Of a stretch of 64,000 nt of DNA, positions 1 through 16,720 are shown piece after piece; position 1 is the stretch's first letter, and each line of letters begins with the position of its first letter. Position numbers and translations under genes: made by a program. Source of the DNA: Lytechinus pictus (Eukaryota); assembly GCF_037042905.1 (NCBI RefSeq), contig NC_087251.1:8682001-8746000 (forward strand). The letters run 5' to 3'. The notes beneath the pieces were generated by a model. That model was given only the letters and a program-made list of their open reading frames with translations, had not been told where the DNA came from and ran no database searches.

Positions 1-455
1 GCTCAACCCCCAGGCTCATACACTGTAATGTGCATGGTGCTGAATAGATGAAGCATGTGAAGCCTTAAAGCACTAGGAGTTTATTTGTTAAGATGTCAAG
101 AATTAACCACTTCCCTGAATATTTCTTGACTGATTTCACTATTTTGTACAAACAAAAAGGGTACAGAAAAAAAGGAAGGAACTTGTGGCGCAGATCTCCA
201 AAATATCATTCAGATCGATACGAAAAATTGCCTCATTTTCGTTACAGCGCAACTAATTTGTATATTCAGATGTCGCTTGAATGTGTCAGCATGATTGCTT
301 AAACCCACTTTTTAAAAGACACTATACACATGCATGGGTATTATTTGAGACTAATTCTGTGTATGCTTCCCTGGCAGACACAAATACCCCTATTAGATCT
401 CCATGACCAATTAACTAAGGTTATGTAATGTTCAGTTGTTATATTTCTTCCTTAC

Positions 456-624
456 CTGACGACAGATCCAGGTCTTCTGTATTAGGCAAGTTTGCTTGCA
501 CTTTCTTGTTGCTTTCTTTTGGCGTTCTGGCAGGATCACGATATCTGACGTTCCTTAGCCGCATTTCAATGTAACCTGATGAATCTTTTGTTTTGTTTTG
601 GCTTGCTGGAGTGAACCAGGTCAA
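456..624 (-). CDS. Coding exon 6 of the transposon SAM-domain accessory gene (LTWFTPASQNKTKDSSGYIEMRLRNVRYRDP...); the gene continues off the window
   Basis: Acceptor ttttactttaaag|TTG at 624 and donor CAG|gtaagg at 456; 169 nt, phase 0 to 1. The W-F...GYIExRLRNVR motif resembles SAMD3-like ORF2 proteins of animal EnSpm elements (recognised from memory). Confidence 0.8.
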
Positions 625-1048
625 CTTTAAAGTAAAAGAGTAAAAAAAGTAAAACAAAACTATTGAATTTTAGAAGTAGAGATCACTGTTCATAAGAATT
701 TGTATTACCCTTTGGGGTAACTGTACGGTCAATCAGATTTACCTTAATAAAGGCTTGCCCAATCTGAGACAATAACCTTTCAATGATTTAAGCATTTAGA
801 CTTTCAGTTGTATCAAGTTTCATCCACTTTTGTCTGGTTGAGTAAATAATAACCTGCTGCAGATAACGTGTTCAGGGGGTCATTTAGCATTAGCTGATAT
901 TAAGTATAAACAATGGTTATCTTGGTCATCATGAGCCTAAAGTCAATGATGAACATGGCTTGTAAATGGGTGATCCTATCTTTAACAAGTAACAATGTTA
1001 CACACAATTTATCTAGCCATGAACTAACATAATGAACTCAAAACTTAC

Positions 1049-1133
1049 GTAAGCATCATGATCATCATTGTCCAACGCAGGAAACTGGGTAACAATGCAT
1101 TTTGCCATTGCCAATTTTTGCTCTGTTTTAGGC
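1049..1133 (-). CDS. Coding exon 5 of the SAM-domain accessory gene (WPKTEQKLAMAKCIVTQFPALDNDDHDAY)
   Basis: Acceptor ttttcatttttctaaag|G at 1133 and donor TAC|gtaagt at 1049; 85 nt, phase 2 to 0, matching both neighbouring exons. Not in the ORF track. Confidence 0.8.
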
Positions 1134-1998
1134 CTTTAGAAAAATGAAAATTGAATGTTTAAGAATATTGTTTTAAAAGGCTATATATATTAGAGATTAA
1201 ATGCAATTCTTTGCAGGGAATAAATTACCTAGTATCGCATCGCAATTTGCTTTGCTTTTTTGCAGGGCTGCTACACAAAATTTACTTTGTGTCACAATTT
1301 TTTTTCCATGGGATTGTACATAATTTGTTTTAAATATTTTCCCATCTCCAAAAATTTCTAATCAAATCTGGGAAGCAAAATTATTCCCTGCTTTGAATTG
1401 TAGTCTGATGAACTTCTGCTTCATCGGTGATCTGCTTTGAGAATATCCTTTATATAGCAAAATTTTGATCCACCCATTTTCTGATTTTAGTAATTCCAAA
1501 CTCCCATCCTTTAATAAAGCAGACAAACAGTGCAAGGTGTATGTATCACACCAAACTATTTCCAAGCACCTGCATAATACACATGTAATGTCAGCTCATT
1601 GCATGTATTTGTTATGTAAATGTGATAAACAATTCAAAAGCTGTGTTTAAATATCAACACACAAGTTTCAATTATGCCATGAAAATGTAAAAAAATATAA
1701 ATTTATGTGAAATTTGTTAGATAAGATTACATGTATACAATTTTTATACCAAGTGTCTGGTTATTTCTGGTATGCAATGCACCAGTTAAGTTGATAATTA
1801 ACTTTTGTGTCATCTACAAGAGAAAGGGATTGCTTTTGAAATGGTATGTATGTGTCTGTGGTCAAACTTTTAATCCTTGACATCTATTTGATCACTGGAG
1901 TCAATTGGTAAGGCAAATAAGCAAATAAACTACCACATAGTATAGCACATCTAAATACGCTAGCATTTCCTTTTTCTGCTCATAGGATTTTAGCTTAC

Positions 1999-2138
1999 CA
2001 CTTTGTATATGTCTCTATCAGGTGTGAGACCAATGTGTTCACTATCAATTTTCGTGAATTGTAGCTGATGCACCCTTCCTCCATCTCCTTTATAAGCTCC
2101 TCCCCCTCTCTCCGTTTGGACAAGATGGCTCGTATGTC
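1999..2138 (-). CDS. Coding exon 4 of the SAM-domain accessory gene (DIRAILSKRREGEELIKEMEEGCISYNSRKLIVNTLVSHLIETYTK)
   Basis: Acceptor cttctgatctgcag|GAC at 2138 and donor TG|gtaagc at 1999; 140 nt, phase 0 to 2, open frame. The RKLIVNTLVSHL helix resembles this ORF2 family. Confidence 0.8.
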
Positions 2139-2308
2139 CTGCAGATCAGAAGTGATTACAAAGAAAGGTCATAAGTGGATGCTTTAAGTGATCCATGTAT
2201 GTGCCGGGGCCTTCACATCTAGAATATGAGAGAGATACTATAGGAACAGGAACAAACAAGGAGCCTAGCTAGTACATTTTTTTTCTTCATTTTGCGCCAA
2301 CAATCGTT

Positions 2309-2559
2309 AAATGTGGTACCATCATCCAAATCGATAGTTTCTGGGATTGTTTTCATACCTTTTTTTTAAATTAATTTCATATTTTTCTAAAAAACAGCCA
2401 ATATGTGTCAAATAACTGCTTTACAAATCATGGGTTTTTTGGTTTAAAAAAATGATTTTTGCCTTTACTGACAAATATTTTGAAAAATAGGAATTTAACT
2501 TAAAAAGAAAAAACAAAACATACCCAAGAACTATCGATTTAGATGATGTTTACCCATTT
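2309..2559. mobile_element. Small MITE-like inverted-repeat element in an intron
   Basis: ggtaccatcatccaaatcgatagtttctggga (from 2315) is an imperfect inverted repeat of acccaagaactatcgatttagatgatgtttacc (2522-2554). No clear TSD. Confidence 0.55.
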
Positions 2560-2807
2560 TTTACCCAAAAGTATTTTTTCTAGGCTTGTTAAAAAAATTG
2601 GATAAATAACTTGCTGTTTTTGGTGAGTTTCTGAAAAGCAAGTTCTTAATCTAAAATCTGATGCTATAATTAGATTTCTTGTGAAATTTCCTTTTAAAAA
2701 GTGTCTACATTTATTCAGCATACATTATCAGTTTTCAAGTTACAATGAAAACAATTTTACAGAAGTCGCAAGGCTCTGACCTCCCTTAATGTTGATTAAA
2801 AACTTAC

Positions 2808-3092
2808 ATGAGCCATCTTGATCTTTTTAGCCTCGGGTGGTTTGATGATAGATGTTGATGAACTGCTTGGGATAGACACTGACGAGTTGCTGGTGTTTGG
2901 GATATCTTCTGGTGGTTTAGATGTTGATGATGAACTGCTTCGGATAGACGTTGAGGAGTTGCTGGTGCTTGGGATATCTTCTGGTGGTTTGATGATAGAT
3001 GTTGATGAACCACTTGGGATAGACAGTGAGGAGTTGCTAGTACTTGGGATATCTTCAGAGAACGTGCAATCTTCAGAGATCAATGATGGTCC
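2808..3092 (-). CDS. Coding exon 3 of the SAM-domain accessory gene; Ser/Thr/Pro-rich linker with three tandem 23-25 aa repeats (EDIPSTSNSSxSIPSSSSTSIIKPP)
   Basis: Lies within ORF 2796..3164(-). Strong donor CAT|gtaagt at 2808 (phase 0). The acceptor is tentative: a pyrimidine tract ending cttgag|GGA at 3092 gives the required phase 0, but GAG is an atypical acceptor. Confidence 0.6.
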
Positions 3093-3832
3093 CTCAAGTA
3101 GTGAAGTGCAGAACAGATGGTTATTAATACAGTAAATCATTAAATTTGTTTTCACAATTCCCAAAACAGAGTGCTCAATGGATTCCCAGAGATAATTTAT
3201 TCAAAATTCCAAAAGTTCCAATCAGCATTTAATCACTATACTACTTATAGTTTCATACAAGAGTTGTACTAAGATCAGGTAGAATCACTAAATCTTTACA
3301 AAACTCCCTAGCTGGTTTACAAGCTCTTTCAGGAGTTCCTGAGCTATTGAGCTACTCAAACATGAAGGTCTATGTACTCCTTTGTTTTTTTTTTGGTCTG
3401 TTTGTTTTTATGTCAAAGCATCGACTTTTTTTTTTAAACTAAGAGTTTCTATTACATGTAAAACTTGAAAACTTATATACAGTATTAACATCCAAGTTTT
3501 TAGACCAAAAATTTGGATCCTGCATGTCCGTCAAAGTGTCAAGTTACATTGCTATGAACAGCAAGCAGTCATAAAGGAAGTGAGTTGTGAGTTGAAATTG
3601 TAACGAATTAATCAGATTTCTTCACATGCACAATGTGTATGCAGGTCAGAAACTCTACATGCAAACAAAAAATGTTATCTACATTGTGCATGTGTGCTGT
3701 GCACCCTCTACATGTGCATTGTATATCGAGCTCTGGCTCAAAATTAATGGTTTGTGACCTGCAGTAGATTGAAAATCCTGTTTTAGTAACTTAGCAAAAT
3801 AAATCAATCTTTTTTGCGATTGAATTACTCAC

Positions 3833-6346
3833 CTACAACATACATCTTGTGCTTATGTAATACAAGTCATCATCGTCATCATAGGATTTAGTAGCATGCA
3901 GGGGATTAGAGTCAATCAAATTCTCAACTTGAACCACAGTTATTTCCTTTGGCTCTTTAGGTTGTACCGCATAAGCATGGAAGTGTCTTTTAAATCCATA
4001 TGTATGCCACAAATGGCACACAAGAAAAACTGTTGTACCAACTGCAAGCACTGTTCTCACATTTCCAAATTGGGCATCTCCATTGTCATTTTTGCTAACT
4101 GCCACCATCATATTTTCACGATACTCAGTACCATAAACCTTGCACCACTGTGCAACATATATATCATCATATAAAGGTATGCTACATGTCTGAGATATAA
4201 TTTCAGCACCTTCCAATGATGCTAACATCACAGATAAACCAGGACCTGTTTCAACAGATTTCTGTGTCATTGTCTGATTGCTTAATACGTTATAGCAAAG
4301 CTGCATTTGGTTTCTGTAGGCTAGAGTTTTGGCAATATTTCTGAAATTGCACACAATGTGTGCCAAACGTTTAGAAAAGTTGTGCTTTCCTTCGAAACGC
4401 ATCACCCAATAAATAATGAGAGGTCCAAGCAGCTGCATTGCTGAAGGGTAGTGGCTCATGAAGTGGTGTTTCGGCTTCAGATCACGATCAGGAAAGAGTT
4501 GCAAAAAGAGCATGTGGTGGTCTCTAATTAATTGTGCCAAGAACAAGGTATGTCCCTTGCTTATCTTAGATGAAAAAATGATATCCATACATTGTTTCAA
4601 AGCTACGATAAGTTCCCAGTGCTCATCATCTTCTTGAATAAGATCTGCAAGCATAACTCCAATATGACGGACAAGGCACCACATTTGTGCTGCATGCTGT
4701 CCTGCAGCACCATCAGGAAAACGAAGCTGATTGCTAGTGAAGGGGCAGGGTTTGTTACTTGCATCAGGTAGGCCGTAATTGAAACTCGTAATCCTGGCAT
4801 TTAATGTTTCTAATGTAAAAGCTTGTTTTCTGATAAGTTCATGCAGCACCAATTTCACCTCCAAGGGGCACACTCCCTCTAGCATGTCATGCATGATGTC
4901 TGGTGCTCTGTTGTCTAGAGTATGAAAGTGTGTCAATTCATTCAAGATACATGGTGATTTTATACCAGTCTCTTGTAAGCTATTCCTATTAAGGTCCAGT
5001 TGATAATTCTCAGGTGTCCGCATTACTTCTTTTCTTTCAAGTAAAGCATGCTTTATGTCAGCACGTGGCATTCGGCAAGTTCTGCATGGAAAGTTTGCTG
5101 TGAAGCCCTCGCTGAAACCAAACAATGAGTGAATCCCTAGATTGTCTCCTACTACTTGTGCTATCCCAACCTTTACAACTCCATCAAGAGTGTCGGTATG
5201 AATGGCTATACCATCTGACTCAAGCACCTTCAGATCTTTCAGCAATTGTGACAAAATCACAGGATATCCATAAAGTTTTGCGTCACTTGAATTGAACAGC
5301 ATCAACAAATATATGTTTGCTAAAGTTGACCGGTATTGAGGTGGTACACTAGCAATTTTGAAATACACTCCTGTCAGTTTGTGAGTCCCAGACTTAGGAC
5401 TAAGAGGGTTGGTAACCTCGAAGTCATCTACATACAGAATTAGTTTGATTGTACGAGTGCTAGATAAAAACCTACTTTGCCTGCAGAAAAAACCATCTTG
5501 AAAATCATGCATCATACCATCTGTGCTTGGTACATAGCTTACAGCTAGTTTCATAAGATCTGTTTTTTCAAGCAATAAGGTTATTAGCTTTTTAATTGGA
5601 ATGTACTGGCATGTGATAGTCTTCATAACCTGCTGCACATTGCCTGTTAAACGGTTATTACATGGATAATATGCAATACCTATTGTAGTTTGTTCAGGCT
5701 GAATAAAAGCTGCACTGTTCTTGAAGAATTTCTTCTGCTTGTATTGACTTTCCATGTTATCAAACGGGTGGGAAACCATATCTATATCCAATAGGAGACT
5801 TTGAAATTCATCATTTTCTTCAAGTCCAGTTTCTGCACCGAATTTTTGCACCTTATATTTTATATACATACACGTGTCTTTAACTAAAGAAGCTGACTTT
5901 TCTACAACTTCATTAACTGTGGTATGGACAATGCTACTGTTTGCCAGCAGACCCGCAACCAGCATGACAGCCCGTTCCTTAATTTCATCCTCACCAAAAT
6001 AATCCCACATCTCAGCATCCCCTTCTGTTGGGTCAATGTCAACATCAATGTTTTCAGCAAAATCATTGCCTGCGTCAACATCTGCAGCATTATCAAAATT
6101 ACCATGTGGACGTGGTGGGACATGGCCATGTGGTTCTCTAGTACAAGCATGACTCATCAAGTGGCGCTTGAACTGTTCCGTTCTGCCTGAGAATGTTCGT
6201 TGGCACCCTTCCTGCATACATACTATACTTTCTGTAAAAATACGGCCCTTAATAACACCATGTCGATTCTGTAAATGCCATAAAATTGCTTTACTGCCAC
6301 CGTCTATAAGTTCACCACACTTGGGACAAGTACAATTATATTCCAT
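3833..6346 (-). CDS. CACTA/EnSpm (CMC) DDE transposase, 837 aa, intronless and apparently intact
   Basis: Two N-terminal C2H2-like fingers (CPKC...HLQNRH; CMQEGC...HLMSH). CMC-type catalytic signature: YVDDFEVTNPL (D), GDNLG (D), CRTC (CxxC), PDIMHDMLEG, KPKHHFMSHYP (HxxxH), WVMRFEGKH (E). No stops or frameshifts. Confidence 0.92.
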   Translation of the reverse strand: MEYNCTCPKCGELIDGGSKAILWHLQNRHGVIKGRIFTESIVCMQEGCQRTFSGRTEQFKRHLMSHACTREPHGHVPPRPHGNFDNAADVDAGNDFAENIDVDIDPTEGDAEMWDYFGEDEIKERAVMLVAGLLANSSIVHTTVNEVVEKSASLVKDTCMYIKYKVQKFGAETGLEENDEFQSLLLDIDMVSHPFDNMESQYKQKKFFKNSAAFIQPEQTTIGIAYYPCNNRLTGNVQQVMKTITCQYIPIKKLITLLLEKTDLMKLAVSYVPSTDGMMHDFQDGFFCRQSRFLSSTRTIKLILYVDDFEVTNPLSPKSGTHKLTGVYFKIASVPPQYRSTLANIYLLMLFNSSDAKLYGYPVILSQLLKDLKVLESDGIAIHTDTLDGVVKVGIAQVVGDNLGIHSLFGFSEGFTANFPCRTCRMPRADIKHALLERKEVMRTPENYQLDLNRNSLQETGIKSPCILNELTHFHTLDNRAPDIMHDMLEGVCPLEVKLVLHELIRKQAFTLETLNARITSFNYGLPDASNKPCPFTSNQLRFPDGAAGQHAAQMWCLVRHIGVMLADLIQEDDEHWELIVALKQCMDIIFSSKISKGHTLFLAQLIRDHHMLFLQLFPDRDLKPKHHFMSHYPSAMQLLGPLIIYWVMRFEGKHNFSKRLAHIVCNFRNIAKTLAYRNQMQLCYNVLSNQTMTQKSVETGPGLSVMLASLEGAEIISQTCSIPLYDDIYVAQWCKVYGTEYRENMMVAVSKNDNGDAQFGNVRTVLAVGTTVFLVCHLWHTYGFKRHFHAYAVQPKEPKEITVVQVENLIDSNPLHATKSYDDDDDLYYISTRCML

Positions 6347-6401
6347 TAGAATAGTGTTTCCGATATACTCCTTTACAGAGTAAAAGTCAAAATAAAAGTA
6401 C

Positions 6402-6517
6402 CTTCAATTCCTTTATCCTTTGGAGCAGCTTTGATCTTGGACCAAGTGGCTTTATCAAATCCGCTTTCACAGCTTGATCATCAAGGAGAAGGAGGGTTTC
6501 TTGGTCAATCTCTTGTT
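6402..6517 (-). CDS. Coding exon 2 of the accessory gene; C-terminal part of a SAM domain (EQEIDQETLLLLDDQAVKADLIKPLGPRSKLLQRIKELK)
   Basis: Acceptor ttttatttgtaacag|AA at 6517 and donor AAG|gtactt at 6402; 116 nt, phase 1 to 0. EIDxExLLLL...LGPRxKL is a typical SAM pattern. Confidence 0.85.
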
Positions 6518-8211
6518 CTGTTACAAATAAAACCATATGACCATATTCCGTGTTATTCATGATCCAGATTACAGGCATTGTGGGCATGTGTGTTTTTACC
6601 AGGTTTTCATGAGGGGTGTAATTAGAAAGAAAAAAAATTAGTGGTTCTTGAGTCGAAGTTCTCGCTTCGATCTCATGGAGCAGTAGTTGGGGAATCTTCA
6701 TAATACATACAATGTAGCTGAATTTGGTAGAATTTAATTGGTATCAAATTCAAGAAACACTTTTGAAGTTTGAAACATAATATTTGCTGATGACCTACAC
6801 AAATCTTGGAAAATTAGGAAGATTCAAAGTTCTTCACATGGCTTTCTAGTGCGCATGTAAGCAAAATCTTTCTGCAATATTAGCGTAAGTGATAATGGCG
6901 CAAAAAACCTGAGGCACACTATGTTTATCTCACACATATTAATGCATTGCATCTTCCCTTTTGTGTTCTAAGCATGCAAGGACCCAAATTCCCCAAAATG
7001 CCCTTTAATATTTGACCAACTGAAAATCATATGACACCCCTCCCCCATAAGTTTCTCCTTGCCCCTTCCCCTGTAAATAATGCACGCTCTTTATCGACCA
7101 AAATTTTCCTCTGTGTAATTTGATGGGAAACATATCGATTCTAATCGGATACTCTAATAGTCGCTACAGATAAACCATTTGCAATAGAAAGCTCAAACTT
7201 CTTGAGGATGTCAAACTTAGTATTATCTTTATTCTGGTATCCTTTGATAAGCAAAAAATTCAAAAAAATTTTGAAAGAATGAAAAGCACCCTCATGCTAC
7301 ATTTTAACCTATGATGGCGCATTTCACAAAAACGAAATGTCTGATTTTTACAGAACTTTCAAAATCTTGTATTTTGACTTCATTTGCATCTAATTTGACA
7401 CCAAAGGTACAGAAATATTCACTGAAAATGAGTGAAATTAAGTAACTTTTTGCTCCTTCCCACAATTTCAATAGCTATGAGCTGACATAAGAGGGCATGG
7501 CGCACCTTTTTGGTAAACACATAGTCCAAAATTTTTCCATATTATATTGAGATAAGTCATTTCCCACAAAAAAAACACTGTTGTAAAAATTAAATTACCA
7601 AAAAAGTGTTTTTGACCCCTGTATAAAGCCCACTCCTACTTCAACAACAAACATAAGGCGGAACAAAATTGTTCTGGTTACATACTGCCCAGAAAGTTGG
7701 GTAAGTCTGTCGGCAAAACATTTTATTTTGAACAACAATTTAAAGTTGATCGCTCATTATAAATATTCCAAGTAAAAATGAGTGCAAAATTTGGAAGTTT
7801 GACATCACACACCTTCAAGCTTGCTAACCCCCTACAAGCCAAACAGCTCCGTAGGTCAAAGCATGGCCAAACAAATCCATAGCCAGACAGGCTCACATTA
7901 TAGATGGAATATTATTTTATTGTTGCTTGAGGAATTTCTCGAACGGATAAAAAAGTGTGTAAAGTGATTTGTTACTAACCATGAACGCCCAACGTTATTC
8001 TCGGACTTTGATTGAACGGCAGTAAATGTCTTGCGTGCTGCGTACATTCAAATACGGAAGGCTTAGGCATGCATTTACTGTGCATATTTAACACTGTTTT
8101 GCATACCAAATGCAGTGTTAAACTCAATTAAACTTGCTCAGTCTGAGAAATTCTTCAAGCAACAATATCAAATTTTGCGACAGTTGAACAGTTATGATTA
8201 CAAAAGCTTAC

Positions 8212-8278
8212 CTTCAAAATTTTCCAGAAATCTTTCCAGCCCCCACATCACTAGTTTCTCTTTAACAAAGTCATCCAT
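8212..8278 (-). CDS. Coding exon 1 (start codon) of the accessory gene; N-terminal part of the SAM domain (MDDFVKEKLVMWGLERFLENFE)
   Basis: ATG at 8278 and donor GAAG|gtaagc at 8212 (phase 1), which joins in frame to the 6517 exon and completes a SAM-like ...WGLERFLENFEEQEID... Candidate upstream acceptors at about 8298 and 8327. Confidence 0.8.
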
Positions 8279-8692
8279 GATGACAACACACTCCAATCTG
8301 GAAGGAGATCCGTGAAAAGGAAGGAGCTGTATAAAAAGGGAAGATAATCATTATCGGGGTTAAAAGTTTGGTTCAACTTTTTAATTTGACATCACATTTT
8401 CAATTTGACTTAACTCATATATAGAGGACCCTCTCCTAATGGCCTCAAATGTTGAAAATTAGTTTTGCATAAATCTGTTTCTATCTCTTTCCTACGAGGG
8501 CTAGCATTTTCTTGTGAGGGGGGGGGGTCCAAATTTACAAAAAGTCGACGGCGATAAAGTTACAACACCCCTATTTCAGCAACAAAAATTTAATAACCCC
8601 CATCAATGATACACTTTACCCCCTAAAGAGGCTAAAATTGTATTGAAATCAGTCCTTTTGAGCAAAATAAACACACTATCTGTGGTCATCAG

Positions 8693-8862
8693 GTGGGTGT
8701 TTCATAAAGCTGTTCGTAAAGTTACGAACGACTTTACGCACGACTGGAACATGTTCTTAGGTCATAATTCAATTACATAGGGATATCACAGAGCACAAGA
8801 AAGGATCACCAGTCGTTCGTAAAGTCATTCGTATCTTACGAACAGCTTTATGAAACACCCAC
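8693..8862. mobile_element. PIF/Harbinger-like MITE, 170 bp, with 3-bp CAG TSD
   Basis: Perfect 27-bp TIRs gtgggtgtttcataaagctgttcgtaa / ttacgaacagctttatgaaacacccac, with further imperfect symmetry inward. CAG flanks both ends (8690-8692, 8863-8865). Superfamily inferred from the 3-bp TSD. Confidence 0.8.
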
Positions 8863-10294
8863 CAGGTGACTTCAAACTTTTTGATCATCAAAATGTCATT
8901 TTAATACTCCTTGGGTATAAATTTTTCTAAAATTTAACTCTTGGGCGATTATGAGACACATTTCTTTTTTATTTAAATTTTTTCCCCTCAAATAGAGCTC
9001 AAACTAAATTTCTATCTGATTTAATTTGACATGATAGACTAGAGCTGAATTAAGAAGCACTCATACAGGAATGTTAATTATTTGTCTCTGGAGACATAAG
9101 AACATTTATAAGATGGAAACTATCCCCTCTAATTTCATAATTTTTTCGATTTTGAGAAAACCATTAGAGTGGTGGGTTTGTATGTTGCTGCTGTTTCTAC
9201 AACATAAAAAATCAATAGGTGTGGGTAAAAAATACAGTTGTCTATAAGGCAAGGGCAATAATGGAACTTGTAAACATAAAACTGGCAACGAGTTCTCAAG
9301 CTTTAAAATGGGCCAAAAATTAGTTTAAAAAAATCAGTTCTTTGAGCCCCTATTTTGGTGCCTTTCCATTCTTTAAGCCCCTATTTTCAGCCCTGCGAAT
9401 CTCACACCCATACCAAAACAAAAGTTTAGTACCCCTCCCCCCCCCCCCCCGATCGATATTTGCTCTTGGAACCAAATTATGTCTCACATATATGAAATTC
9501 TTGTAGGCCTACATGGCATTATAAGCTTAGTGTTCAAAAATAAAAATTCCAGGGGAATTCGTCCCCTCCCCCCCCCCCCTTAGTACTGCCACTGCTGAAA
9601 AATGTCTCTGGAGTGGCTTCTGACATGACTTGCCGCGATAAATTGCTCTGACTTAACCCATTTTAGATGTGCCACTGAGCGAAATCATGCACGCTCGCTT
9701 TAAAAGACAATATCTGATCTGATTTTGTAGGCACACAATATTTCATTTCCAGTAATTTTTCAACAAACCCCCCCCCCCAAAAAAAAAAAAACATTTTAAG
9801 GCCAAGTAAAACAAAAAAAAATGGTTCTCTTCTGGTTTTTGGAAAAATAGGAGGGGCTCTTTGTTTTTTATTGAATTAATTTCTGAATACCTACGGTTTA
9901 TAGCACTATATTTTCAATATGCGGTGCCCCCCAAAAAGATGGAGGCCTTTTTATTTTCTTGTTTCAAACATCTTTATAAAACAAGTTATATGGCCTTGGG
10001 AATTAAAGTTCCGGGGAGGGGAGGTAGTAGACTTGCATCTTTTTGAAATCACACAGGGCTTTATTTTTGTTCATTATCAGATCACTTATATAATATTCTG
10101 AGAAAATAAAAAAGTCCTGAATACAAAGTCTGTTGCAATTAGAATTTGTTGAAATACATGTAAATATATGCAAATGTCTCTAATTTCCCCCCTCGATCGG
10201 ATTTGTTCTTTTTTACTAGCCCTGACAATATACATATCGGTCATATCAGACCAGCAAACTAAGCTAATTGCCTGACAGTGACTTTTACTGGTAA

Positions 10295-10640
10295 GGCCAA
10301 GTAAAATCAATTCCTAGTTTCTCGTCCGGATTTTTCGAAAATGAGGAGGGGGTTCCATGTTATTTATTTGATATTTGATTTTTTTTTATACACAAAAATG
10401 CTATTGGGTCAACTTCAACACATTCTTCACAAATTTAGTAACACTTGTACTACACTACAGAGGATCGAAACAAGGTGTAATTGCATATTAATGTTTTTTG
10501 GTATATCATTGTCTAGAAGTCCTCATATTTTTATTCATATCATTTCAGAACAAAAATATCAAATAACAAAGCAATTAAGGCGGCCCCAAAAAAAGGAAGG
10601 AGGGGACGAGAAAAAAAATTGAAATTATTTTTATTTGGCC
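10295..10640. mobile_element. MITE with GGCCAA termini (Harbinger-like); a related degraded copy lies at about 9800-9995
   Basis: Left end ggccaagtaaaatcaattcctagtttctcgtcc resembles the reverse complement of right end ggacgag...ttttatttggcc. Flanks are TAA and TCA. The same ggccaagtaaaa start occurs at 9800. Confidence 0.6.
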
Positions 10641-11392
10641 TCATCTGACCACCTGACAGGTGTGTGTCAAGCCCTTTTTTTTGGGGGGGTGGTCTACATA
10701 TGTGACCTACTATCTCAAAAGCCCACAATAAGTCACCTAAAATGAGTTTTGAAATTTTCATTGTTGAAATTCCATTATTTTAATTATATTATTCTAGAAT
10801 TTACAAGACGGCTGTGCCCTTAGCCTTTAGGTGTTGACATGCGTAGTCAGTCACAACTATGTCAACAGAGGGTTTCCTTTATGATAAAAATATTGAGGCC
10901 TAATCTTAAAGATCCATAATGCTTAGAAAATGTTTCGAATCGGCTACTCTTAAAATGTGGGATAATTCATCAAAGCACATAGTAATAAAGTACTAAAATC
11001 TACAAGAAAGGCCAACTGAGAAACTCTGATTTCTGAAACGAATTGAAATAAAATCACAGGTTTCTGGTAGGCTTTGAGTTTCCCCCTCCTGCGCTAAGCG
11101 TGGAAGCTTTGAAATTTCCTGAAATCATTAGCAAAAGAAGACAATCTTTGTTGTGATTCTACATCTGCCCTTTCCCTAACTTCTCTTACTTTTTCATTTT
11201 TTTTTCTCTCTCCCCCTTTCTCCCTCTCTCCTTTTTTTGTTTTTTTTTGGGGGGGTGACTGCCCCAACCCCCCCAGCTACATGCCTGGTAGTTATGACAC
11301 TGATGGCTAGTTTTATCTCAATGTCAATCTTGACACTTTGCCAAAGACTCTCTTTGCATGCATATAATATAGGCCTAGGCCTACATAAAAAA

Positions 11393-12480
11393 ACTAGAAA
11401 TATCACTATCAGTGATTAATAATACTACCCCCGCCAGCAGCGCTCTACCTACATAAAAAATAATATCCCACTATAATAACCCCAAAAAGAAAAGAAAAAA
11501 TGAAATATTTTGAAGTCTATCAGTTAGGGCAAAAACTATGCATCATCAGATATATCAAAGAATGACATTTCACTGAGAATCCAATCAACAGTGCAACCTT
11601 CTTTTTTTTTAACTATTAGGCCTATATCTTGCACTTCTTCATATCACTATGGACCCATGCACCGAATTTCAAATCAATTGGTCAAAAAATGAGGGAGTAG
11701 TATGATCCACAAGATTTTTGCACCAATTTTATTTTAAAATGTTGTTGCCATGGCAACGCAATTCTCGACTTTGACGAAAATTATATCTTGCACTTATATT
11801 TTATACACATCAATATGGACTTAATGTTCCAAATTTCAAATTAATTGGTCCTTAACTGAGGGAGTAGTATGATCCACAAAAATTTTGCACAAATTTCATT
11901 CAAAAAATGCTGTTGCCATGGCAACACGATTCTCGACTCTGACGAAAAATATATCTTGAATTTTTATACATCATTATGGACCTATGTAAGCCTACTAGCC
12001 TAATTAAAAATTCAGGTCAATTGATCAAAAACTGAGGAAGGAGTTAGATCCACAAATTTTTTGCATGAATTTCATTCAAAAAATGCTGTTGCCACGGCAA
12101 CGCAATTCTCAACTTTGATGAACAATATATCTTGCACTTCTATACATCATTATGGACCTATGTAGGCCTACTAAATTTCAGGTCAATTGATCAAAAACTG
12201 AGGGAGGAGTTAGATCCACAAGATTTTTGCATGAATTTCACTCAAAAATGCTGTTGCCATGGCAACACATTTCCCGACTTTGACGAAAAATATATCTTGC
12301 ACTTCTACATATCATTATGGACCCATGTATTAAATTTCAAGTCAATTGATCAAAAACTGAGGGAGTTTGATCCACAAGATTCTGCAACGGACCGCCCGCC
12401 CGCCCGGCCACACGGTGATTCCTATATAGGGCCTAGGCCTACCCCCTTACAGTTACACACCTTGTGTGTGGCGGGGGTAT
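11393..12480 (-). mobile_element. Non-autonomous Helentron-type element (HINE/DINE-1/pearl-like) with a central array of about 165-176-bp tandem repeats
   Basis: Subterminal inverted repeats TACCCCCGCCA (11426-11436) / TGGCGGGGGTA (12469-12479). Minus-strand 3' hairpin ATCACT-gat-AGTGAT followed by a CTAGT end in a T run. (CCGC)n microsatellite near 12390-12408. About 4.5 tandem units over 11620-12380. Confidence 0.8.
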
Positions 12481-13200
12481 AAAAAATCAGTAGTAGGCCT
12501 AAGTTAGGCCTACTAGGCCTAGGCTATAGCTACCTTCAAGACAGTGAAGCCATAACTTAGGCATTCATTGAAAAAAAATTGAATATCAAATACTAAAGTT
12601 AGGCCTAGGCCTAAACTAAGTTAGGGCCTAGGCTAGGCTAGGGCTAGGCCTTGATCTAGTCTAGCCTTGGCCTGGGTCAGGGCCCAGGCCTGCCGCCTAG
12701 TATGAAATGAGGTTTGGAATAAAAATATGCTTCTTGACATTTTTGTGCATGAGATCGCTGAATACCTTAGCCTTCAGGGCCTATACAATCCACGCTTCAT
12801 GAATATACTCGTAATGTAGATAGATCTAGGCCCCGCCGGGATCTAACAGTTAGGCCTATAGCTAGGCCTACATGGGTCTGCCTTGTTTTGCCTTGCCTTG
12901 CTCAAGACGACTCGACATGCTATTGCTAACCATAACTTACTAGGCCTAGTAGGCCTAAAGTTAGGCCTAATACTAGTTAGATAGGCCTAACGTTAGACCT
13001 AAGGTAGGCCTAGCCTAGCCCAACTTCCAAGCCTAACTTACTCGAGTTCCATTTGCTGTCTTATGACTGAGACTGCTAGTGCTAGCCGCGAGACCAGGGC
13101 CAGGGCCAGGCCCAGGGGTGAACATCATAAAACAACATCAATTCCAGACTAATCATTGTGCAAACTGCATGCAGACTGTCGAATGCAGTAGGCTAAGGCT
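12430..13200. repeat. Dense cluster of TAGGCCTA palindromes and variants
   Basis: About a dozen exact TAGGCCTA between about 12434 and 13012, plus many TAGGCT/GGCCTAG variants, irregularly spaced. Confidence 0.85.
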
Positions 13201-13445
13201 AAGCTACCGTACATCAATCATATTCATAACGTATGTGCATCGAGTAGCATCGCAGTGATCGTACATGACATTTTGTGAGTTGCATTGACATTTTGTGAGT
13301 TGCATTTTGACCGAAAATCGTATGATGGCACTGTTGCAGATACAAGAAATTTGTTCAAGAGAATAGAGCATATTAATACATATAAAAATAAAACTACTTC
13401 ACCGACAAAATCATGTAATATCTTACAGATTAAACTGGATAACTT

Positions 13446-13560
13446 ACCGCGGTATACACTCATGATATGGCGACTGATTTCAAATGATCGTCTGCGTGGC
13501 TGCGCTAGCTGCGCGCGCGGCCGGCGCGGTGACGTCAGTCAACAAGTTTGACCAATGAAA
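13446..13560 (-). promoter_or_regulatory. Putative transposon promoter and short non-coding first exon
   Basis: CpG-rich patch gcgcgcgcggccggcgcgg, perfect CRE TGACGTCA (13530-13537), CCAAT (13552-13556). On the minus strand, TCAGTCGCCAT (Inr/YY1-like) is followed by donor GCG|gtaagt at 13448/13447. It lies just inside the subterminal repeats. Confidence 0.55.
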
Positions 13561-13632
13561 TGTTTCATCGAAGACAACGTCATTTTGAAGAGAATACGTA
13601 TCAAAAATTTTCAGCATCCACGTCATTTTGTC

Positions 13633-14178
13633 GGGGGGGGGGGGGCACTCAACTTTGGGTTTGGTAGGGATGTGCGGCCCCGGTTTCTGAAACGGGGGAC
13701 AGGTATAACCGAGTTGACTCTGAAAAGGAGATCTATAACCGAAGTGACCTTAAAAGCAGTGGCGGCACCAGGATTTTTAAGGGGGGGGGGGGGCAAATAG
13801 GGGGCAAAACAAAATGTGGGGGGGGGGGCAATGCCGGACAAAAAAACCCTCCCTTTTCTTTTCTTTCTCATTTTCAACCCTTTAATTTTTCACTCCGAAA
13901 ATTATTGGGGGCAACTTGGAGGGGGGGGTCAAATGCCGTTTGAAGTTGAGAGCTATTTTTTGTCAATTGCTCTGGAAGCAAAAAAATCTGAAATTTGCTT
14001 AAAATGGCCGGGGGTCTAGATATTAAATTTCCCCCAAAAGGGATTAAGAATTTTCAAAAAGGGCTTGTGAACTAAATATTGTGCTTGAATTTATATGGGG
14101 TCTACGGAGCGGCAGGCAATTAAGGCGTGAAGAGGGTGTTTGCGGTGGCACATTTTTTAGGTCAGTACGTGCCCCGGG
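13633..14178. mobile_element. Non-autonomous DNA transposon inserted into the CACTA subterminal region; contains a truncated CAGTGGCGGCACC-type element from about 13757
   Basis: Flanked by the direct repeat cattttgtc (13624-13632 and 14179-14187; 8-9-bp TSD). The termini (c)ggggg...gcac and gtgccccggg are inverted repeats. Confidence 0.75.
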
Positions 14179-14182
14179 CATT

Positions 14183-14485
14183 TTGTCATTCAAAAGGGAA
14201 CGATTCTCTATTTTCATTAAATAGTCTTCTATTCAAAATATTTGACAAGGAAATCTTTTTGTTATTGTCATTCAAAATGAAACGATTCTTTTCATTTTAA
14301 ATAGTTTTCTAATCATTTTGAACAGTTTTCTATTCAAAATATTTGACAAGGAAATCTTTTTATCTTTGTCATTCAAAATGAAACGATTCTTTTTCATTTT
14401 GAACAGTTTTCTAATCATTTTGAATAGAAAACTATTCATTTTGAATAGTTTTCTATTCGAAAATATTTGACAAGGAAATCTTTTC
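14183..14485. repeat. CACTA subterminal repeat array
   Basis: Three imperfect units of about 80-120 bp (ttgtcattcaaaa...atatttgacaaggaaatctttt) built from TTCAAAAT/ATTTTGAA motifs in both orientations, directly inside the CACTCTTAAAA terminus. Confidence 0.85.
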
Positions 14486-16720
14486 AGAATTTGAAGAGGT
14501 TATTTTAAGAGTGTATATATCTTTGTGGTATGATAGAAAGACCTAACAAAGTGAATAAGAAAAGAGAAATGTATACATGGAAATGAAGAAGGAATACGAA
14601 AATATAAAATCACAATCTTTTCAAAGACCATAAAAACGGATTTATCGTTTTTGGTGACATATAGGCTTTATAGATCTGTAGATGGAAAAGGACCCTTTTC
14701 CATTTTTTGTGATTTATATGATTGACATGTAAATTGATCGGAATATTCTATGATCTTGGGAAGAAAATGTAACAGATCGTGCGAATCTGAGTGTAAAGGA
14801 TGAAAGGAAAGCTCAAATAATCCTGAGCATTGAAAAATGAGTCCATTTGAAAACTGCAAAAGTAATTCAAGAGTATCTCTATATATTTTCTTTCCTGTCA
14901 TTTCATTCACATCCGATCTTCAGCTATACTTTCATCATCTGACCTATCCGACCATTTACGCATCTTTTTGTATTTGATGTCATCTATACGGTCAAATCAC
15001 TTTGCAGCATGTTACAGTCAGTAAAGTTCAGCTGAGAAGTTTTGTGTCCTTATTATTTTTTAAATATAATTTTTTTAAAGTTTTATCGCAGCATAGACCT
15101 TTTGCATGTAATACTTGATTTCTACTTTTTCTTATTTGTAAATGCATGAAAACGGGGGGGGGGGGGGTAACACAATTTTTTGAAAAATGAAATAAATAAA
15201 GACATGCAATGCATCTATGTATTCAAATACATTATCATTCAACAGCCTGGTTAATATTTATTTCGGATATATCTTATTTTTCCCCTCATTTATTCAAGCA
15301 GAGATAACGAATGCAAAAAAGAGCAAGAACAATCATATTCACAAAATAAAACTCAGAAAATTCATTTGTAGTCTCCTTATGTAGAATTACTCCAATATTA
15401 TCAAAAGGCCTTGTTAATGTATCATGTTTGAATATAGATTTCTAATTTTCTCCCTATCATGCCTATTCTCTCACATCTGAATCAGCCTCCATCCCCGAGA
15501 TAGCTGCAGATGTTTTTCAAAAACACATTTACTTGCCTTTCTGAGCGGTACATATTCTTAAACTTTTCACTTAGCCATTGGTTTTGAAATCGGAGCAGAC
15601 GTTATTTCACTCTGTGCTTCTTGAAAACACTTGACGTGGGTGTAACATTTAGCCCACGTTTCACTCTGCTGTTTGAGCGGAACAATTTCTATTCACCCTT
15701 TCCCGTCTAACCACGCACCCTTGGGTTGCCTAAGATAGCTTCTAAAGAGGACTGCTTGGTCAGGTATGTGGTCTGCATGATAAAATACTCATCTTGTCAA
15801 ATGTGTATATTATGTATAACTTGTAGAAAGGTACACTGTCTTCTGACAAAATCAAAATTCGATTGCAACACCTTTATGAATCCCATCGACAAAAAGTTAT
15901 ATAAAGTCGACCTGACGCGCATTTGTGTGTGGGTGTGCATGTGCGTCTGTGCGAGTTTGTAATGACCTACTTCTGGGGACAATTTTTTACAGTTTACCCT
16001 TTAAGTGGGGACGCCACCGGCAAAGAAAACCATTCCAATCAATCCCCAATCTCATTTTAAATCGTTTCATATAGTAAATGTAGGGTTACAAAAGGTTCCC
16101 TTTTGGCATATTTAACTCTAGCTGTGTGTGTACTATGTAGGGGGTAAAACGCGTCCCCGGTTAGCAAACTAACGTATGCTCATGTAAAATGTCAGAAAAT
16201 TAGCCGGTTGGTGGATTAAATCCAAACTTTCGAGTGTATGAGACCGCAAACCCATGTCCCCACTCTGGCGATAAGTGAGTCCCCGAAAACCAACTTACAA
16301 GACGGTGAGGGTGTGTGTGTGTGTGTGAGGGTGTATGTGTGAGTGTTTTGCTGCTTCTTATGTGTGCTTAAAGGTCACGTGGCCATGACTGTTATTTCAA
16401 TGTGGGCTAAAGTTCATCGCTCAATGGCCCCGAGGTCCAACAGAAATGTATTGATATGAAAATGATCTTCAAACTTTGAAATGTAATAGTAGTTTGTTAC
16501 CCCCAAACTAACGTTTTCTGTGTGAGGAATGTACGGTTTATATAGGTTTGGCCCAAAAATATTGAAGATTACATTAAGTAACTGACGTTTTTAATTTGAA
16601 GTTGCAAATGTCACAAATTGGCTTTCGATGGCTCAAATTACATACTTTATTGTCAATATCAATATTTCTTATTCTTATCAAATTATGTTTTAACAAAATA
16701 AAATAATCAAGGAAAGTGGT

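Follow-up and report, generated by a model that had tools for sequence, protein, structure and literature searches.

A SAM-domain gene with a transposase gene nested in its intron probably forms a two-gene CMC/CMCT transposon in the sea urchin Lytechinus pictus

To our knowledge, cut-and-paste transposons that encode two proteins are few (En/Spm, Harbinger, MuDR and Transib/ProtoRAG), and each of these systems has taught how accessory proteins assemble or regulate a transposase. In maize En/Spm, the second gene has several exons, and one of its early introns houses the coding region of the transposase; in Harbinger, the two genes stand apart and are not nested. Both TnpA of En/Spm and the Myb-like protein of Harbinger are required for transposition, and TnpA also acts as a repressor. 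Here we analyzed a stretch of 64,000 nucleotides from the sea urchin Lytechinus pictus (G000:C7:8682001-8746000, hereafter the window), for which an initial annotation, made from the letters alone, had proposed a two-gene CACTA system: a multi-exon SAM-domain gene (hereafter the helper gene) with a transposase gene nested in one of its introns. That interpretation is partly supported by our results. With a probability of about 0.7, we read the locus as an autonomous, recently active 23-kb DNA transposon of the CMC/CMCT clade (CACTA-like) that carries two nested, co-evolving genes.

The element is 23,007 bp long, and the helper and the transposase lie between its inverted ends in every full copy. 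It reaches from about 6 kb upstream of helper exon 1 to 3.6 kb downstream of exon 10, and its 5' part falls in the window as follows.

1..14513, minus strand: part of the element inside the window, delimited by blastn of copies; the 5' end is at 14513, and beyond the window start the element runs on to L031:1507 (window -8493).
14492..14513, minus strand: 5' terminal inverted repeat CACTCTTAAAATAACCTCTTCA, read from the sequence; the same junction recurs at each of the 11 copies read at the 5' end.
14185..14485, strand not assigned: 5' subterminal repeats, consisting of 101-bp and 21-bp repeats with TGAATAG / CTATTCA in both orientations.

When the 812-Mb genome was searched, the copies on C12 and C18 aligned by blastn with the window's own copy at 96.99-99.83% identity, with at least 98.8% in all but one 964-bp block. 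Identity among the copies begins at CACTCTTAAAATAACCTCTTC (window 14513) and stops at ...GAAGAGGTTTTTTTTAGAGTG (L031:1507), where the 3' mate of the terminal inverted repeat ends in ...TGAAGAGGTTTTTTTTAGAGTG. Genome-wide, the 5' end was found 11 times and the 3' end 12 times, and the CACTC...GAGTG termini were present at all 11 and all 12 of them. About a dozen copies (at least 11, deletion derivatives included) are more than 98% identical. Arrays of TGAATAG / CTATTCA occupy both ends in both orientations, and of the 8-mer TGAATAGA/TCTATTCA, 12 instances fall in the outermost 450 bp at the two ends and a single one in the 22-kb interior.

Both flanks could be read for 11 copies: TA/TA was found at nine, CA/CA at one, and TA/AT at the window's own copy. 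The target duplication is therefore 2 bp with a preference for TA, and the dinucleotide lies outside the element; 3-bp flanks matched only at the own copy (ATA/ATA) and at none of the 10 others. These data bear on the idea that a transposase element inserted into an intron of some host SAM gene, with later copying of the locus by segmental duplication. Seen in a single copy, a transposase nested in an intron does have the look of a chance insertion, but copies on nine different contigs stop at the same CACTC/GAGTG ends, and 2-bp duplications flank these ends in 10 of the 11 copies. The shared ends and the target duplications thus contradict this explanation, which we regard as very improbable. 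Moreover, no separate inverted ends surround the transposase in intron 2, as judged from the collinear 23-kb alignment at more than 98.7% and not from a search specific for them.

Full copies and shortened copies coexist in the genome. In each of the three full copies that we read, the reading frames of the transposase and of the 10 helper exons are uninterrupted, and a full transposase open reading frame (ORF) is present in seven genome copies at 98-100% identity, two more being broken (C3 and C1:43.25 Mb). Three two-ended copies (C21:10068876-10085564, 16.7 kb; C29:70776-83544, 12.8 kb; C11:21035135-21052517, 17.4 kb) keep helper exons 4-10 without a transposase match; they are thus internal-deletion derivatives, and probably non-autonomous.

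The ends bear on the class of the element. The CMC/CMCT termini are 5'-CA(C)...(G)TG-3' according to PMC12730594 and PMC4079192, as they are here, and the former gives CMCT target duplications of 2-5 bp, to be compared with 2 bp in 10 of our 11 copies. Classical CACTA elements combine a 3-bp duplication with CACTA...TAGTG ends according to PMC4158355, and the present element shows neither. With its 2-bp duplication and CACTC/GAGTG ends it is therefore filed in the wider CMC/CMCT clade, and the name CACTA, as initially given, holds in this wider sense but not in the classical one. PMC12730594 also describes ESTA elements, which make TA duplications, from fungi, and Plavaka elements with TGT..ACA or CATCA..TGATG ends, which differ from CACTC...GAGTG. 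The two ORFs between inverted ends together with subterminal repeats, by which EnSpm/CACTA elements are recognized, are both present.

The genes of the element are arranged as follows; exons 7-10 of the helper lie outside the window.

8212..8278, minus strand: helper exon 1, opening with ATG and encoding SAM residues 1-22 (reading frame, P0037 mapping, joint 6517>8212).
6402..6517, minus strand: helper exon 2, SAM residues 23-61 (SAM_1 at E 1.2e-4 from exon 2 alone; RNA joint).
3833..6346, minus strand: transposase gene P0002 (ORF 6346-3836, stop 3835-3833), intronless, 837 residues, inside helper intron 2.
2808..3092, minus strand: helper exon 3, Ser/Thr-rich repeated linker (frame, P0037 mapping, RNA joints; predicted local distance difference test score, pLDDT, below 50 at residues 66-134).
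1999..2138, minus strand: helper exon 4, where the conserved core begins (frame, P0037 mapping, RNA joints, diverged lineages).
1049..1133, minus strand: helper exon 5 (frame, P0037 mapping, RNA joints).
456..624, minus strand: helper exon 6 (frame, P0037 mapping, RNA joint).
L031 9571-9387, 8910-8763, 7080-6947 and 5431-5105 (including the stop): helper exons 7-10, outside the window.

The six-exon structure seen in the window was confirmed. GT follows all six exons, AG precedes exons 2-6, an ATG opens exon 1, and the joined exons make 862 nt in one open frame of 287 residues. The initial annotation had this gene run off the window after 287 residues; its exons were correct, and the gene extends to 10 exons and 551 residues, with four exons before the window start. 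In a search with a downstream ORF, the annotated L. pictus protein P0037 (LOC135155655, 551 residues) was matched. Its residues 1-287 equal the predicted peptide except at one residue, and its pieces map to the window exon by exon. All ten exons are bounded by GT-AG, and the protein encoded by the own copy (551 residues) is identical to P0037 at 548 of 551 positions. Two partial, diverged duplicates of the last exon lie downstream of the gene but inside the element (L031 ~4869-4740 and 4140-4003; 41-68% identity to P0037 residues 496-551).

Splicing of the helper was examined with reads and contigs of four public runs under the same species label, compared with window positions 1-14600. All five predicted junctions were present in one contig of run X1 (Logan; 3,526 nt, depth 16.5), namely 624>1049, 1133>1999, 2138>2808, 3092>6402 and 6517>8212, and the skipped stretches read CT..AC on the plus strand, that is, GT..AG on the minus strand. 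No intronless helper copy was found among 79 scored genome matches, so that a retrocopy does not account for the spliced contig. In run X5, one contig contained two of the five joints and retained introns 5 and 2. The transposase ORF was covered by X1 contigs at depths of 3.4-5.8 and by an unspliced X5 contig (3437-6894) at depth 43, although contig depths are poor measures of expression; in about 6% of the raw reads of X10, depth was 0.37-0.96 over 3897-4870, within this ORF.

The transposase was found, as had been proposed, wholly within the intron between helper exons 2 and 3 and on the same strand. Its N-terminus matches two C2H2 fingers (profile search against PDB, TFIIIA at E 3.9e-9). 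In an alignment of 27 homologues (A1), D307 and D401 are conserved in 27 of 27, C421 in 26 of 27 and C424 in 27 of 27 (C421xxC424), H628 and H632 each in 24 of 25 (H628xxxH632), and E652, which we chose as the likely catalytic glutamate, in 23 of 24. Judging from this alignment, the protein carries a predicted D307/D401/E652 core with C421xxC424 and H628xxxH632, matching the CMCT signature given in PMC12730594. Against Pfam, the own transposase had no match at E<=10, and its 27 homologues had only matches below the cut-offs, to Transposase_21 (five, best 1.2e-3), Plavaka (three, best 1.8e-4) and DUF4218 (two). In a separate scan, P0047 matched Transposase_21 at 7.3e-4. The nearest Atlas clusters that bear a Pfam name are Plavaka. 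AATAAA and ATTAAA signals stand at window positions 3201 and 3233 (minus strand), about 600 nt beyond the stop codon of the transposase and about 110 nt short of exon 3, and a transposase mRNA might be polyadenylated at these intronic sites.

This locus resembles En/Spm in several respects. Both encode two proteins on one strand, both have CAC...GTG ends, each with an array of short subterminal repeats in either orientation, and in both deletion derivatives occur. The nesting of the transposase in an intron, on which the initial annotation had based its parallel, also stands; the position does not, since the transposase sits in intron 2, after the SAM exons, rather than in intron 1. The two systems also differ in that the sea urchin transposase ORF is intronless with its own ATG, and in that the own transposase lacks a Transposase_21 match, with five of 27 homologues matching below threshold. 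The SAM protein had further been proposed as the animal counterpart of TnpA. By sequence we found no such relation: in Pfam searches at E<=10, P0037 gave only SAM_1, SAM_2 and a chance C_Hendra match, and no TnpA-type model was among the 25 most often matched of the 72 Pfam families found with 69 helper-family members. PIF/Harbinger is similar in being a cut-and-paste system whose second protein is kept through divergence, but differs in its transposase superfamily and its ends.

Conservation of the pair was examined in three diverged lineages of the same genome, whose transposases are 63.7, 41.0 and 34.6% identical to the own one. In all three, the helper exons follow the transposase in unchanged order and on its strand (last exon 60.7, 43.3 and 34.8% identical), and an ORF resembling SAM exon 2 lies just upstream of the transposase (E 5e-8, 4e-8 and 1e-8); an exon-1-like ORF is present too in the 64% lineage. 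The putative exon-2 donor precedes the transposase ATG by 9-56 nt in three of the four lineages (56 nt in the own one) and by 1.8 kb in the 64% lineage. When the DNA of the own family is compared with that of the 64% lineage, alignment is confined to the transposase ORF, to helper exons 7, 8 and 10 and to the terminal 145 bp, and the introns do not align. The 3' end of the 64% lineage again bears TGAATAG clusters and finishes in GAGAGTG followed by TA. Thus, the order of SAM exon, transposase and helper exons is retained although the element family has diverged deeply.

The two genes have also diverged together. Over seven linked pairs, the pairwise identities of transposase and helper correlate with a Mantel r of 0.72, a value reached in 11 of 5000 permutations; one further pair without the helper C-terminus was dropped. 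Neighboring locus numbers join the two genes in HOLleu_29486/HOLleu_29487 and in L. pictus LOC129283670/LOC129283671, and gene models that link both genes were found in sea cucumbers, a Diadema urchin, fishes and wasps. Transposase segments are present in 8 of 197 helper-family proteins, and helper segments in 4 of 35 transposase homologues (the core in P0022 and P0036, the SAM domain in P0022, P0024 and P0018). With both genes inside the inverted ends in every full copy and diverging in parallel, the claim that the SAM gene belongs to a true two-gene transposon is borne out.

It could be argued that the SAM gene is a host gene captured by transduplication, a passive passenger without a role in the life cycle of the element. 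Large CACTA-type elements do capture host gene fragments, and the fish relatives si:dkey-286j15.1 and zgc:113210 carry gene-like names and could be host genes. However, four lineages share the SAM-transposase-core order, even where transposase identity has fallen to 35%, with exons conserved and introns unalignable, helper and transposase co-diverge, and the linkage recurs in sea cucumbers, fishes and wasps. Identical helper-family proteins were also found, in several cases, at more than one locus in other species, as expected for repeats. We therefore consider a captured passenger quite improbable, and keep to the reading of a two-gene transposon whose helper is its own.

The helper protein consists of a SAM domain, a disordered Ser/Thr repeat linker and a conserved core of about 400 residues. 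The SAM match expected at its N-terminus was found: SAM_1 scored 28.5 bits against the Pfam cut-off of 23, and the predicted model shows the five-helix fold, with likeness to the SAM domains of BICC1, tankyrase and DGK-delta; Foldseek against PDB likewise returned SAM. In the predicted model (pLDDT 85), the core is helical to about residue 415 and then mixed alpha/beta. A profile of four echinoderm helpers matched 2,579 cluster representatives at E<=1e-3 and 781 at E<=1e-10; the core represents a large unnamed family of animal proteins. When 61 long family members were scanned, seven began with SAM, two had C2H2 fingers, one had a Myb/SANT-like domain and one a nucleoplasmin-like domain, so that N-terminal modules vary from one core-bearing protein to another; in P0067, for example, a Myb/SANT-like domain stands in place of SAM.

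The initial annotation expected such proteins to be filed as uncharacterized or SAMD3-like. Relatives in the 30 clusters whose names were looked up were indeed called only 'uncharacterized' or 'hypothetical', and none of these 30 was called SAMD3. The sole pointer to SAMD3 was an ESM-Atlas cluster named SAMD3-like (rank 24, score 0.85, 201 shared features). Vertebrate SAMD3 and 'SAMD3-like' proteins presumably share with the helper a similar length and an N-terminal SAM domain followed by an unannotated region. Our literature search yielded no paper that describes a SAM-domain protein as a partner of CMC/CACTA elements or derives SAMD3 from a transposon; Repbase and Dfam were outside the search, and the family may be deposited there. 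The accessory genes that PMC12730594 names for CMCT elements are TET/JBP dioxygenases, not SAM proteins.

The region after exon 2 bears on how the transposase may be expressed from within the helper gene. Reading through from exon 2, a stop is met after four codons, and in this lineage the transposase must therefore start at its own ATG. A SAM-transposase fusion made by read-through was rejected on this ground, and since the frames differ in the own, the 41% and the 35% lineages; an in-frame micro-intron of 31 nt that would join exon 2 to the transposase frame was dismissed as too short. In other lineages, represented by gene models from Diadema, Holothuria and an ENA record, SAM reads in frame into the finger-transposase in the predicted models P0022 and P0024, and in P0018, the model from Diadema, SAM exon 1 is connected to the transposase around residue 105; these three models hint, at the level of predicted sequence, at SAM-transposase fusion products in some lineages. 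The conserved start of the transposase a few tens of bases past a splice donor suggests a splice-controlled switch, in which use or non-use of the exon-2 donor would decide between helper mRNA and transposase-coding RNA. If this is true, the En/Spm logic would have arisen a second time, independently, in animals.

We propose the following mechanism for the two-gene transposon. The transposase, with its fingers and DDE core, would cut and paste the element at TA. The helper most likely assembles on the element ends, where head-to-tail oligomers of its SAM domain could plausibly bridge the subterminal arrays, and by analogy with TnpA of En/Spm, the Myb-like protein of Harbinger and the RAG2-like protein of Transib/RAG it may be needed for transposition or tune it. 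In a different explanation, the helper is a brake: the element would encode it to regulate or repress transposition and so hold copy number down, and the splice choice would favor helper over transposase. In X1, depth is higher for the spliced helper contig (16.5) than for those covering the transposase ORF (3.4-5.8), though these depths measure expression poorly; 3 of 11 two-ended copies keep helper exons 4-10 without a transposase match; and conservation together with the transposase fits a regulator as well as a co-factor. Our data do not separate the two roles, but the known second proteins, TnpA and the Harbinger Myb-like protein, are required for transposition, although TnpA also represses, and we think a brake unlikely.

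Several observations weigh against the reading of an active two-gene transposon with a helper that works at its ends. The window's own copy has mismatched flanks (TA/AT). Run X1 is classed as RNA only by an automated guess, although it is difficult to account for a spliced contig in any other way, and in the raw RNA-seq runs X9 and X10 (samples of about 6%) no reads fell on helper exons and the element was almost uncovered. The transposase has C2H2 fingers of its own that could read the subterminal repeats without a helper, and read-through from exon 2 stops after four codons, with the transposase in the +1 frame. As for the helper core, it matched no Pfam family and showed no obvious catalytic or DNA-binding motif. 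A PDB profile search with the helper alignment gave only a chance row (E 0.27), and Foldseek with the whole helper model returned from PDB only SAM matches (E>=0.064, probability 1.00), with core rows at a probability of 0.15 or less, and from BFVD a best E of 0.017 at probability 0.33. A wider structure search with the whole model was filled by SAM domains, so that the core was effectively not searched there.

Even so, what appears to be an active animal element with an intact, expressed gene pair and defined ends makes the role of a SAM helper directly testable, and recognizing the helper core as transposon-borne would clean gene annotation in many genomes. Such recognition would also lead one to ask whether vertebrate SAM-domain genes include domesticated copies. 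Fish family members recur across species under zebrafish gene names (P0044, P0193, P0194 (si:dkey-286j15.1), P0249 and P0250 (zgc:113210)), and these five are candidates for domesticated helper genes. A more far-reaching picture, which we offer only tentatively and think doubtful as a whole, is that the core is a new fold of a widespread, unnamed class of animal transposon accessory proteins, that the SAM exons form a shared leader with the exon-2 donor switching between helper and transposase, that some relatives make SAM-transposase fusions, and that SAMD3, zgc:113210 and si:dkey-286j15.1 are domesticated helpers.

Outside the two genes, a Pfam scan of 11 other ORFs of the element gave no family, the remaining ~9 kb being without a recognizable coding domain, and an Rfam scan of window positions 1-14600 gave no match at E<=0.1. 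Elsewhere in the genome, diverged lineages of this transposase family are gathered in two nests, all on the plus strand, at C1:43.01-43.27 Mb (13 match rows) and C31:0.21-0.39 Mb (six), and each could be a transposon graveyard or a small-RNA cluster. Two further features of the element were noted in the window.

11665..12365, strand not assigned: internal tandem array of a 176-bp unit, 4.2 copies with 81% matches, within the 5' third of the element, which is non-coding.
8690..8866, strand not assigned: nested miniature inverted-repeat transposable element (MITE) of about 177 bp that has inverted ends of its own (GGTGGGTGTTTCATAAAGCTGTTCGTAA...); it lies 412 bp upstream of the helper ATG and outside the two-gene system.

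The ORF antisense to the tandem array (12069-12482) matched no Pfam family. The MITE was the only well-covered part of the region in the raw RNA runs, with a contig word depth in the thousands, and the opposite-strand joints seen at it fit a hairpin.

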